Source of the DNA: a plasmid
Sequence record: NZ_CP071296.1
Strand: one strand, 5' to 3'
Length of the DNA stretch: 64,000 nt
Positions 54,001 to 57,000 of the stretch are shown piece after piece; the stretch's first letter is position 1, and every line of letters begins with the position of its first letter. The position numbers were made by a program.

Positions 54001-57000
54001 GATAAGGAAGTTTTTCGTCGGTTTTGTTTGCTATTAAAATAAAAAAGCAACTAATTGATAAAAAAATCAACTTGTTGCTTTTTTTGTGAGTACATGTGCA
54101 CTATTTTATTACTTTAATTACGATATCAAGGGAGAGCCTTCCAATATTATAAACTAATTAGCGGAGATCTATAATCCAGATTTTCTACAAGATAAACTGC
54201 AGAGCTGAGCGAAAATTACTAATTTAATAGTCCTTGATATACACGTTCAAAAATTTTTCTATTAAATTCAATCAAAAAATTAAAATCTATTCTTTGATTC
54301 GAAGGTATCTGAGGTATAACTTTACTGTTATAATCTGTTTCTAATCTTTGGAGGAGTTCCTGGGAAGGATTGATAAATTCCTTGATTAAATCAATCGGGA
54401 CAAGTTTAATATCAAACATTTTTCTAATAATAGCTATATTATCAATCGAATCAATATTCATGAAATATTCTGGTTTACTCGTGAGAGTTGTATATATATC
54501 GTACAGATCTCTAGAGCGGGTTTTAGGTGAAGAAATCTCATAATCTGGCAATTGTTGACAGCTTGCACGAATTTTTTCATCAACAATCATCAGTGGAGAA
54601 TATATAAAAATATCAATGCCATCATAATTATATTGTTGCCTGTCTTCTGTTATTTCATCAAAACTTAAATCTATACAAATTTTTTTTTGACTATTTTCAA
54701 TAGATTCCGCATAAGCACCTGGATTCTTTTTTTGGGTTTCATTGAGTTGTTGAAATATTTCTTCTGAGATAATCGTAAAAGTTACTGCATAGCCTCCCCA
54801 AAAAGGTGGGGTATTTTCTCCTCTTTTTGATGGTCTATGTTCAAACTTGAAATTAACTACTCTATATCCTAAGTTTAAAAAAGAACTGGAAATAACTTCA
54901 AGAAAAATAGGGCCATGTATTTCTTTGTCTAATCTTTTAGATTCAGCTATCGAAAAATCTAAATCTTGAGATTGCCTTTGTGTAATTCCTAAAAGCTTTA
55001 AAGCATTGCCTCCTTTTAATGTAAGTAAGCTTGCCAAATCAGGATTAGAGAAAATAGCTGTTAAACATGTCATTCGAATTTTATCTGGTGTAATCATTAA
55101 GTATCTCCATTGAAGTATGTATCTATTTTATCATAAATTCTATATTGGATTGTTATAGAAGAAAATTGAAGATAAAATAATAGCTATAGTATATATACTA
55201 TAGCTATCTTTATATTTGTAATTTTGCTATAATTTAGATAGAGATAAAATAATAGCTATAGTATATATACTATAGCTATCTTTTGAAAAATATATTTGGA
55301 GACTTTTATGGATAAAGACCCATATCATTTGAAAGAAAATAAATATCTATTACAAGAACTAGGGCAAACTTTTGGAAATGTTCTCAATCGCACATCCATG
55401 ATAAATTTTATAAAGAAAGCTAAAAATGAGTCAAACATCTCAAAAAATGTGAGTTTTGGTATTATGGTGAAATATTTAGTAGATCATTTAGATTTATTTG
55501 ATGAAATTCGAATTTACCCAGAAGGAAAAGAACCCATTTCAAGGTACGTTGCTAAATATTGTGTAGTTTCTCCATATGAAATTGCCCTTTCATTATTATC
55601 AAATTCTTTTTTATCGCATTATAGTGCTTTATATGTAAATGATTTAACAATAAATGAACCTAAAGATATATATATAAATAGAGAGCAAACGGCAAAGCCT
55701 AAAAATGATTCTAATGCCAAGTTAACTCAAGGAAAAATTGATTATGCCTTTTCTAAACCAATGCGAAGAACAAATACCGTTTATTTATTTAGGTATAAGG
55801 GAGTAATGTATAATGTTTTTGTTTTAAATTCAAAGAATACAAAAAATACTGGTATTATAAAAAAGAAACCTGTAGGATTCTCTAAGGCTATAAGAGTAAC
55901 TAATTTAGAAAGAACATTAGTAGATACTGTAGTACGGCCACAATATAGTGGAGGTTTTTCAGAAATACTTGAAGCATATAAGACAGCCTGCTTTGATGTA
56001 GATTTAAAACGTATCAACAAATATATTAAAAAATTTGATTATATTTATCCTTATGAAAAATCCATTCTTTTGTATCTTAAATACACTGAAAATCAGAAGT
56101 TATTTAACCAACTTAGGAATTTATGGATAGATAAAATTGAGGATGATTTAAATTTCTACTTAGACTATCAAATGTTACAAACTGTACTTGACAAAGATTT
56201 AAATATTTATTATCCAAAAGACCTTAAATAATATAGGGCTGATTATCAAAAGAAGAATATATGTGTTAAAAAAAAAAACAAATTCTATATGTACAGGAAC
56301 CATTGAATAAAAAACAACTTTCAGTAATATTTTGGTTTAATTGACAGTTGTTTTTTCTAAAAACGATATACTTCCTGTTATATCTATCTTTCTAATATAT
56401 GTAAGAGTGGAGCTATACTATAAAAGTAGACACAAATATGTGTATTATAATCTGTCTAAGAAGACACAAAAACGAAAGGACTTTTATGTCAGGCTTTAAA
56501 CGTTACGACGAGGAATTTAAACAATCTCTTGTCACCCTCTACCAAACAGGTAAAACTCAATCTGAACTCTGTAAAGACTATGGAGTCTCCGTTTCTGCAC
56601 TTGCAAAATGGATCAACCAGTACTCTCAAGTTCGTCTTGAAGATAATACAGTGTTGACTGCTAAACAGATTCAAGAATTGCAAAAACGCAATGCCCAATT
56701 AGAGGAAGAGAACTTTTTTAAGAAAATATAGTTCATTTTCTGTCTAATTATTTGACATTAGTCCAATCTAGTACAATATCATTTTGAGAAACAATATTGG
56801 TTCCTTTTTTCATCTGGCATTAGGTCTGGATCTTGTGTAGGATCAGAATCTATTGTGTCCTCTTTAGACCATTTTAAGCATAATCATCTTCAAGCCTATC
56901 AATATCTAGTATTTTGATTACCTTTCCTCGACGCTCAATGAATCCCTTTTCTTCTAGTATTTTGAACTTACGAGAAATAGTTTCGGGAGTTGTTCCAATG

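Follow-up and report, generated by a model that had tools for sequence, protein, structure and literature searches.

AbiE, known from S. agalactiae and from plasmid pNP40 of Lactococcus lactis, is a toxin–antitoxin (TA) and abortive-infection system composed of AbiEi and AbiEii that is classed as type IV and was lately proposed as type VII. Its genes form one bicistronic operon in which abiEi is followed by abiEii with a 4-nt overlap (PMC3985639), and its operator is made of two 23-bp repeats 3 bp apart. AbiEi was shown to autoregulate via inverted repeats (PMC3985639, PMC7319586) and auto-phosphorylation of AbiEii at T65 was found to be induced by the antitoxin (bioRxiv 10.64898/2026.01.19.700257). 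In the same way, Rv2827c–Rv2826c (MenA4–MenT4) of Mycobacterium tuberculosis is a co-directional operon with four 23-bp inverted repeats upstream of the antitoxin gene (PMC7319586). Being an operon is almost a defining trait of TA and abortive-infection systems, and the models proposed for their regulation and triggering presume co-transcription.

The locus described here was found in a 64-kb stretch of plasmid DNA, referred to as the window, and is situated in the accessory mosaic of a Lactococcus multi-resistance plasmid. It comprises a minus-strand gene for an AbiEii/DUF1814 nucleotidyltransferase (NTase) and a plus-strand gene for an AbiEi-like partner. It has in common with AbiE the DUF1814 NTase motifs, including a Ser/Thr (S43 here and T65 in AbiEii) that precedes the first catalytic Asp by two residues, long inverted repeats at the partner promoter and a location on mobile elements. 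[quoted passage not shown] Moreover, identity to canonical AbiE is only about 12-15%, the partner is about 110 aa longer than canonical AbiEi and is missed by the AbiEi models of Pfam and NCBIfam, and the operator candidate consists of two separate perfect 28-bp palindromes (one to five in relatives) with an invariant GTATATATAC centre.

The likeness to Rv2827c–Rv2826c rests on the DUF1814 toxin and on several inverted repeats ahead of the antitoxin gene, but in that operon the repeats are imperfect and otherwise arranged, and identity is about 10%. The nearest out-group found was an AbiE-like operon of Nitrosococcus oceani plasmid A. Its NTase is 26% identical, and the gene upstream of it is distantly homologous to the partner (hhalign probability 96%). 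This operon is also preceded by two long perfect palindromes, although they measure 41-43 bp with a GTCCT-N-AGGAC centre and the genes abut in the canonical co-directional layout. What is new in the window is the opposite-strand organisation, of which no published description for AbiE was found in the literature, the module being otherwise of the known AbiE family. The region is probably an AbiE-family TA/abortive-infection module in which the antitoxin autoregulates via palindromic operators.

Protein families of the two genes

The NTase gene (54219..55097, minus strand), the putative toxin gene, encodes 292 aa from an ATG that is preceded by a GGAG ribosome-binding site at 55109..55106. Its assignment to AbiEii/DUF1814, a family of Pol-beta-type NTases (COG2253), made from the sequence in the preliminary description, was borne out by a PF08843 (AbiEii) match of 55 bits (E 1.4e-14) against a cut-off of 22.5 and by PADLOC AbiEii profiles, of which 17 match at E <= 0.016 and 18 at E <= 0.028. 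The key residues are K28-G29-G30, R41, S43, D45, D47, E174-K175 and R196-D197-x-x-D200. The catalytic motifs (GG, DxD, K/E and RDxxD) are invariant in 77 of 79 aligned clade members, the remaining two being gapped. A phmmer search of the PDB with the single NTase sequence gave no match and the clade profile was needed to reach the top match, 9HLO_B (E 3e-7), which is deposited under the name abortive infection protein AbiGII and which we take to be S. agalactiae AbiEii. In this profile match, S43 aligns with T65 of 9HLO_B, and D45/D47 with D67/D69. A Ser at this MenT-type phospho-acceptor position, two positions before catalytic Asp45, is present and invariant in the NTase clade, and the alignment makes S43 a putative auto-phosphorylation site.

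Membership in AbiG (AbiGi/AbiGii) was ruled out, as neither the NTase nor the partner matches AbiGi (PF10899) or AbiGii_2 (PF16873) of Pfam at E <= 1. In RefSeq, 'AbiEii/AbiGii toxin family' is used as a generic product name. A search of the region against Rfam returned nothing above threshold; the hairpin look-alikes that scored below it map to the terminator that follows the NTase gene.

The plus-strand gene had been described as encoding 311 aa, and the open reading frame stands while the length does not. Taken mechanically, the frame opens at TTG 55296, 12 nt before ATG 55308. The ATG was preferred because the TTG overlaps the ribosome-binding site (GGAG, 55298-55301) and because the identical database protein starts at 55308, which gives a partner of 307 aa (55308..56231, plus strand), the putative antitoxin and repressor. 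The suggestion that it belonged to a new partner family had to be abandoned: PADLOC AbiEi profiles match it (E 1e-17), and structure prediction gave the fold of Rv2827c and AbiEi. This AbiEi/MenA4 fold comprises an N-terminal winged helix, the least conserved part of the partner, and an antitoxin C-terminal domain. The ERTLVD-like motif noticed earlier is indeed present, as TNLERTLVD, and no other motif of the partner family is as well conserved. A sequence profile of that family retrieved neither AbiEi nor Rv2827c from the PDB, and the link to these structures comes through fold comparison only.

Pfam and NCBIfam gave no meaningful match to the partner, which is a 'hypothetical protein' in most RefSeq records, and tools built on these libraries will under-call such loci. 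As the AbiEi and AbiEii profiles of PADLOC match the partner and the NTase, respectively, we infer that a PADLOC-type search would classify the locus as AbiE.

Opposite-strand layout among related loci

The divergent layout reported in the preliminary description is real in the window and is conserved in relatives. In a comparison set of 90 related loci from many phyla, 69 were convergent and 14 divergent, 2 had a far-off NTase, 5 had none and none was co-directional. Thus, co-directional genes were observed in 0 of 85 paired relatives, in agreement with the annotated records. Convergent loci mostly have overlapping 3' ends, with a modal overlap of 24 nt; Planococcus pNM8 and a 9-kb plasmid of B. 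subtilis carry convergent relatives. The divergent loci form a monophyletic group that branches from within the convergent ones, and the convergent, 3'-overlapping form is ancestral. It is plausible that the head-to-head form originated when a tandem duplication arose and the outer copies were then lost. This subclade is found on mobile elements of Firmicutes, including the Lactococcus plasmid of the window. That the divergent layout is a derived minority of a larger, usually convergent-overlapping clade had been missed in the earlier reading.

The pair represents a distinct and widespread AbiE-like clade in which the two genes are never co-transcribed, that is, a large clade that breaks the operon rule in a conserved manner. 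As the clade is not organised in operons, some other way of balancing the expression of toxin and antitoxin must be at work. The majority form has convergent genes and overlapping 3' ends in common with the excludon concept (PMC7154746). By analogy, such a geometry could lead in AbiE-like pairs to mutual transcriptional interference or to an RNase III-sensitive duplex RNA, whereas the head-to-head copy of the window is devoid of excludon-like geometry.

Palindromes and proposed control of the partner gene

About 200 bp separate the starts of the two genes. This spacer contains two identical perfect 28-bp palindromes (ATAGCTATAGTATATATACTATAGCTAT), P1 (55180..55207), which is distal to the partner gene and has its centre 96 bp from the NTase ATG, and P2 (55252..55279), which is proximal and has its centre 43 nt upstream of the partner ATG. 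P1 and P2 are spaced by 72 bp, each inside one copy of a direct repeat (55170..55211 and 55242..55283, plus strand) whose copies are 100% identical and 72 nt apart. The preliminary description was right on the direct repeats, on the twin palindromes and on their spacing, but the repeat length of 41 bp had to be corrected to 42 nt. In the 64-kb window, ATAGCTATAGTATATATACTATAGCTAT with up to 3 mismatches was found at P1 and P2 only (0.00 expected, 100 shuffles), as was the 10-bp centre GTATATATAC (0.14 expected).

A candidate extended -10 of the partner promoter, TGCTATAAT, can be read at 55225..55233 (plus strand), relative to which P1 would lie at about -33 to -60 and P2 at about +12 to +39. 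An equivalent strong -10 directly upstream of a palindrome was also observed in divergent relatives. For the NTase, the candidate extended -10 is TGATAAAAT (55125..55133, minus strand), and comparable TGnTA..AT elements are seen in S. suis and Staphylococcus relatives, in the interval from the NTase start to the first palindrome. A consensus promoter scan gave no enrichment over shuffles in the AT-rich spacer DNA, and no -35 element was found to keep a constant distance to the proximal palindrome, the TATATA centre of which had been considered as a possible -10. It had been proposed that an identical operator covers each promoter. This view would suit the partner, whose best candidate promoter is flanked by both palindromes, but is doubtful for the NTase, whose best candidate -10 is separated from the nearest end of P1 by 46 bp.

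Across relatives, one to five palindromes centred on GTATATATAC were found upstream of the partner gene in nearly all of the 90 loci. In 543 kb the motif was counted 179 times where about 0.5 occurrences were expected, and 170 of these 179 copies are within -400 to +60 of the partner start. Palindromes lie upstream of the partner in 61 of 67 convergent loci and upstream of the NTase in none of the 67 convergent loci examined, which indicates that they belong primarily to the partner gene. Every divergent relative has them at the same relative place, with a spacing of 51-77 bp, and throughout the clade the proximal centre is usually 30-60 nt upstream of a start codon supported by a ribosome-binding site. 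They are retained beside orphan partner genes and beside a truncated NTase, and the core is changed to GGTGTATACACC in a monophyletic Paenibacillus partner subclade. The palindromes are thereby co-inherited and co-evolve with the partner gene. Substitutions between genera are symmetric, as for operators, and together with the conservation in relatives this upholds the operator-like character first assigned to the twin palindromes.

By homology, the NTase (AbiEii/MenT-type) would extend the acceptor ends of tRNA with nucleotides and thereby halt growth. The partner may neutralise it through direct contact and induced auto-phosphorylation of Ser43, in analogy with AbiEi and MenA3. The GTATATATAC-centred 28-bp palindromes would be the operators of the partner. 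With P1 over the -35 region and P2 just past the start site, they would bracket the partner promoter, and the partner would therefore repress its own gene, probably in a cooperative manner across the 72-bp spacing. In the head-to-head form, P1 and P2 would also precede the toxin promoter, whose activity they may modulate. Since the candidate toxin promoter has no evident palindrome overlap and no palindrome precedes the NTase in convergent relatives, the partner could act on toxin transcription only indirectly, if at all.

A further reading, which we hold to be unlikely, is that the palindromes act via DNA structure, instead of or besides being duplex operators. Cruciforms or hairpins extruded from the TATATA centre could then switch the partner promoter in response to supercoiling, or be bound by the partner in a structure-specific manner. 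An AT-rich palindrome centre is apt for nucleating extrusion. Symmetry reaches 82-100% over exactly 14 bp per arm and returns to background level by position 16. At the outer positions 10-14 the arms are 82-96% symmetric without conservation of sequence even within one locus, where it is no higher than between loci, a pattern that a simple sequence-specific operator does not predict. Within-locus differences at positions 9-14 amount per position to 53-80 compensatory ones against 10-35 that break pairing. In the same way, out-group palindromes have different flanking arms and each is still perfect. No excess of G·T-type mismatches was observed at arm ends or in the interior, as expected where both strands must pair; on this result an RNA-hairpin reading was rejected.

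Nevertheless, a 28-bp palindrome is short to be extruded stably in vivo, and the locus-specific inner positions 6-9, along with a core that changes with the partner subclade, point to sequence-specific protein recognition. The symmetry may also be a mutational by-product of template-switch 'perfecting' of quasi-palindromes, although the sharp 14-bp limit favours selection. The core is almost invariant across phyla, though the winged-helix domain is so little conserved. To find the DNA-reading surface, the bases of the inner half-sites were compared with the residues of the partner by mutual information; the signal did not single out the winged helix but was evenly spread, with a mean z of 2.5 in both domains, because of phylogenetic confounding. 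Bidirectional terminators were discarded, there being no general A/T tracts beside the arms. Near-invariant and defined in length, the palindromes provide an experimental handle on AbiEi-type DNA recognition as well as on a role of DNA structure.

Little weight is given to the joint proposal that structure-forming palindromes and opposite-strand coupling of toxin and antitoxin together make a mechanistically distinct kind of AbiE. The palindromes would in that case be cruciform or supercoiling switches, or hairpin sites for the NTase-fold domain of the partner, while convergent genes would be coupled through interference or duplex RNA and head-to-head genes through a shared control region. If this were true, the logic that triggers toxin release would be unlike that of all described TA types.

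Role of the pair and its distribution

It is rather improbable that the pair takes no part in TA or defence, the NTase being a non-toxic modifier of a small molecule or RNA and the partner a linked transcription factor. The absence of co-transcription, unlike in classical TA operons, would be in line with such a function, and the toxicity of the NTases of this clade is deduced from homology. On the contrary, the NTase specifically matches AbiEii profiles and keeps the AbiEii/MenT motif set with its phospho-acceptor Ser, and the partner has the AbiEi/MenA4 fold with the antitoxin C-terminal domain. The pairing is strict across phyla: tblastn with the NTase or with the partner returned 45 plasmid records each, and the two sets have equal mobility counts and nearly equal genus counts. 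The pair is located on small plasmids and mobile elements, beside other TA and defence genes. Finally, the NTase is degraded and the partner kept in L. plantarum, and orphan partners occur elsewhere, which is the decay pattern expected for TA loci.

Hardly any credence can be given to the palindromes being another plasmid feature, be it iterons or the origin of a replicon, IS ends or the res sites of the neighbouring resolvase. IS6 copies and a resolvase gene (53399..53965) are close by and recombinase genes lie beside several relatives, but co-inheritance with the partner gene in chromosomes and plasmids of many phyla, regardless of neighbours, refutes it. The palindromes are absent from the rest of the window, they show no consistent linkage to a recombinase or Rep gene and, unlike in recombinase core sites, their arm sequences vary between copies. 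On the last two grounds a dif/lox-like 28-bp recombination site was also rejected.

The AbiE-family module may contribute to plasmid stabilisation and/or phage defence, and it probably adds to the persistence of Lactococcus multi-resistance, Staphylococcus and Streptococcus plasmids. A defence role is not guaranteed; S. agalactiae AbiE did not protect E. coli from any of 32 coliphages. No DNA near-identical to the region was present in PLSDB, and a relative was found in 1 of 2.9 million viral contigs. At least 505 matches were obtained among species-representative genomes of many phyla, and carriers of the pair on small plasmids include staphylococci, streptococci, lactococci and Burkholderia.

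The gene pair and its products

By protein content, the locus is a member of the AbiE superfamily. Its two genes stand head to head about 200 bp apart, with the nucleotidyltransferase (NTase) gene at 54219..55097 on the minus strand (292 aa) and the partner gene on the plus strand, where it had been listed from a TTG start at 55296 to 56231. This TTG overlaps the gene's own ribosome-binding site (GGAG, 55298-55301), and an identical database protein, a hypothetical protein of 307 aa from a Lactococcus sp. LG1267 plasmid, starts at ATG 55308. The gene put forward in the preliminary description is therefore retained, with a product of 307 aa instead of 311 aa. 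The spacer contains two perfect direct repeats (55170-55211 and 55242-55283), each of 42 nt and not of 41 bp as previously claimed. Inside each repeat the perfect 28-bp palindrome ATAGCTATAGTATATATACTATAGCTAT was confirmed (P1, 55180..55207; P2, 55252..55279), with a centre-to-centre distance of 72 bp. No further copy was found in the 64-kb window, either of the palindrome with up to three mismatches (shuffles predict 0.00) or of its 10-bp centre (0.14).

The AbiEii/DUF1814-type identity proposed for the NTase is supported by its match to Pfam AbiEii PF08843 (55 bits, gathering score 22.5) and to many PADLOC AbiEii profiles. An alignment of 79 clade members showed K28-G-G, R41-x-S43-x-D45-x-D47, E174-K175 and R196-D197-x-x-D200 to be invariant except for gaps. 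The best solved relative of the clade profile is 9HLO_B (E 3e-7), deposited under the name 'Abortive infection protein AbiGII' and which we take to be S. agalactiae AbiEii; here, S43 aligns with T65, and D45/D47 with D67/D69. AbiEii was described to be inactivated via antitoxin-induced auto-phosphorylation of T65 (bioRxiv 10.64898/2026.01.19.700257).

The partner matched nothing in Pfam and NCBIfam, and its family profile found nothing in the PDB at the sequence level. PADLOC AbiEi profiles matched residues 88-248 (best E 1.1e-17), and a confident AlphaFold model built with 36 homologues (pLDDT 94.1, pTM 0.89) displays a winged helix of three helices and a beta-hairpin at residues ~9-82, the remainder being an NTase-like AbiEi C-terminal domain. 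The partner is therefore a divergent AbiEi and does not represent the new family that had been suggested. The invariant motifs of its family sit in the C-terminal domain (YLSHYSA, IYINxEQ and TNLERTLxD..VRPxYSGG), and the ERTLVD-like motif noticed earlier falls within the third. Some homologues of ~400-407 aa (P0017, P0029-P0032, P0054, P0057, P0059-P0062) continue for a further ~80 aa at the C-terminus, an extension that the window protein lacks.

Gene arrangement among relatives

A tblastn search of PLSDB found 45 records with either protein, the genus counts being near-identical and the mobility counts the same; on plasmids the pair is strictly linked and stands well apart from the many canonical AbiEii genes. 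In annotated neighbourhoods, head-to-head pairs with a spacer of ~190-280 bp were present in S. pseudintermedius, S. aureus, L. petauri, S. suis pBM407 and L. plantarum, and convergent pairs whose 3' ends overlap were seen in Planococcus pNM8, Hymenobacter, S. epidermidis, B. subtilis, Burkholderia and Riemerella. Species-representative genomes contained at least 505 relatives, from which 80 loci were fetched, and orientation was scored in 90 loci by ORF calling and iterative HMMs. The arrangement was convergent in 69 (overlap most often 24 or 4 nt) and head-to-head in 14, so that the divergent layout first noted in the window recurs among its relatives; the NTase was displaced in 2 loci and absent from 5, and none of the 90 was co-directional. 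The reference description of AbiE is a bicistronic operon with the regulator gene before the NTase gene (PMC3985639), a co-directional organization from which the window pair departs. No published description of opposite-strand AbiE/DUF1814 pairs was found in the literature.

In a neighbour-joining tree of the partner, all head-to-head loci form a single clade nested among convergent loci, with the Planococcus pNM8 group as sister. The larger clade, itself undescribed, is one of convergent AbiE-like pairs with GTATATATAC palindromes, and the window copy is a form derived within it. The nearest out-group found was Nitrosococcus plasmid A, whose NTase is 26% identical and whose upstream gene is a remote partner homologue (hhalign 96%); unlike the window pair, its genes are abutting and co-directional in the canonical layout. 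Only one of 2.9 million viral contigs searched contained a relative.

The 3'-end overlap is conserved across distant phyla (L005, L007-L009, L022-L089, L091 and L092), mostly with 24 nt and also with 4, 14, 27 or 41 nt, and the C-terminal codons of both genes therefore share DNA on opposite strands. Orphan partner genes with palindromes and no NTase within 3 kb were seen at L011 (Salinicoccus chromosome), L020, L056 and L086, and in Granulicatella (L017) ~2.4 kb is inserted between the two genes. On the L. plantarum K25 plasmid (L006, 1299-2441), the NTase is truncated or split, with an annotated remnant of 126 aa, and the partner and three palindromes are intact; with a TIR-domain gene and a YafQ/Phd TA pair as neighbours, this looks like toxin decay within a defence/TA cluster. 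A head-to-head pair 50% identical to the window partner and bearing a Firmicutes-type palindrome (L013) lies on a 6.4-kb contig of a Psychroflexus-assigned MAG (Bacteroidota), which could be a mis-binned plasmid or reflect horizontal transfer.

Palindromes and the partner gene

The paired genes and palindromes constitute a real and conserved feature. One to three spacer palindromes with symmetric substitutions were found in every head-to-head relative: AGCTATAGTATATATACTATAGCT in the window and Pseudolactococcus, AGCTATGGTATATATACCATAGCT in Staphylococcus, Streptococcus and L. petauri, and three copies of AGCATAGGTATATATACCTATGCT in L. plantarum. Among 67 convergent loci, 61 have at least one perfect palindrome (at least 16 bp) in the 350 bp preceding the partner gene, and in 47 there are at least two; no locus has any upstream of the NTase. 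The 543 kb of loci contain 179 copies of the core GTATATATAC, where ~0.5 would be expected for a 10-mer, and 170 of these copies fall in the interval from -400 to +60 relative to the partner start. The proximal centre is usually 30-60 nt upstream of the RBS-supported start codon, and spacings are concentrated around 57-68 bp and 107-113 bp. Palindromes are retained beside orphan partner genes and the truncated L. plantarum NTase, and in a monophyletic Paenibacillus partner subclade the core has switched to GGTGTATACACC. Taken together, these observations link the palindromes with the partner gene and its protein. They exclude an unrelated feature of replicon, IS or res type, an IS or replicon feature being the refuting alternative named at the outset.

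Across 178 sites, each of the first 14 positions from the dyad (1-14) is symmetric in 82-100% of cases and position 15 in 53%, with background levels from position 16. The length of the perfect arms shows a sharp maximum at 14 nt, giving a 28-bp palindrome as in the window. Positions 1-5 are invariant and positions 6-9 partly locus-specific (identity 53-77% within a locus vs 36-44% between loci). At positions 10-14, identity is barely higher within (36-53%) than between loci (25-33%), and symmetry is still 82-96%. Within-locus differences at positions 9-14 were compensatory in 53-80 cases per position vs 10-35 that broke symmetry. No G·T bias was seen among mismatches and the symmetry is therefore one of DNA. 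Upstream of the co-directional operon of Nitrosococcus oceani plasmid A (L090:1360-1498) lie a 41-bp and a 43-bp perfect palindrome, both centred on GTCCT-N-AGGAC. As they are perfect despite mutually unrelated outer arms, AbiEi-type operators may more generally combine perfect symmetry with an arbitrary outer sequence.

Proposed regulation and plasmid context

The best candidate for an extended -10 of the partner promoter is TGCTATAAT (55225-55233, plus), which would place P1 at ~-33 to -60 and P2 at ~+12 to +39. The best NTase candidate, TGATAAAAT (55133-55125, minus), lies 46 bp from P1. The idea of an identical operator on each promoter would suit the partner candidate, flanked by P1 and P2, better than that of the NTase. 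Head-to-head relatives have equivalent strong -10 boxes just 5' of a palindrome, and in single-palindrome relatives the palindrome is midway between two divergent extended -10 boxes. These sequence-based assignments are provisional, because consensus scans were uninformative in this AT-rich DNA and no fixed -35 geometry relative to the palindromes emerges across the clade. Mutual-information analysis and an Rfam search of the module region gave nothing usable.

The locus is read most economically as a toxin–antitoxin or abortive-infection module of the AbiE family. The partner, as antitoxin-repressor, would autoregulate via the palindromes, with proposed parallels in AbiEi, autoregulated at two 23-bp repeats, and in Rv2827c, which acts at four repeats (PMC7319586). 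The NTase, as toxin, would be restrained by protein contact and Ser43 phosphorylation, and the two genes would have separate transcripts. For most of the clade, the two genes could be coupled in an excludon-like manner by convergent transcription with overlap (PMC7154746 for the concept); the window subclade would have traded this overlap for a shared control region. The operator reading leaves unexplained why outer-arm symmetry is sequence-independent and length-defined alongside a poorly conserved winged helix. This would allow for a structural component of the palindromes, as cruciform or hairpin, which is judged rather improbable. To TA specialists, both the arrangement and the architecture of the palindromes would come as a surprise, and they are readily testable; the biochemical components are familiar.

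The module sits in an accessory mosaic of the plasmid, where its neighbours are IS6 copies, an MFS gene of the tetracycline-efflux type, a gene for Tet(M)-like ribosomal protection, and genes for a resolvase, a regulator of the Crp family, an HMA protein and a P-type ATPase. Two near-identical 228-aa IS6-family (DDE_Tnp_IS240) transposase genes in direct orientation enclose the 457-aa, tetracycline-efflux-like MFS gene (50898..52271, minus), and 49541-53084 resembles a composite or translocatable unit with IS6 at its borders. A third transposase gene of the IS6 family (45201..45911) adjoins a 646-aa EF-G-like gene (46491..48431, minus) whose product has the same set of domains as ribosomal-protection proteins of the Tet(M)/Tet(S) type; with the efflux gene, the plasmid would thus carry two tetracycline-resistance mechanisms. 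Where the resolvase and NTase genes converge, a hairpin with T-runs after it (54035-54086) lies between them and is probably a bidirectional terminator, for which Rfam returned sub-threshold look-alikes only (psbA 3'UTR and a miRNA). On the right flank (56438-61034), an IS3-type transposase fragment (HTH_Tnp_1), the Crp/Fnr-family regulator, a 182-aa protein with no Pfam match, the HMA metallochaperone and the P-type ATPase together form a heavy-metal resistance block.
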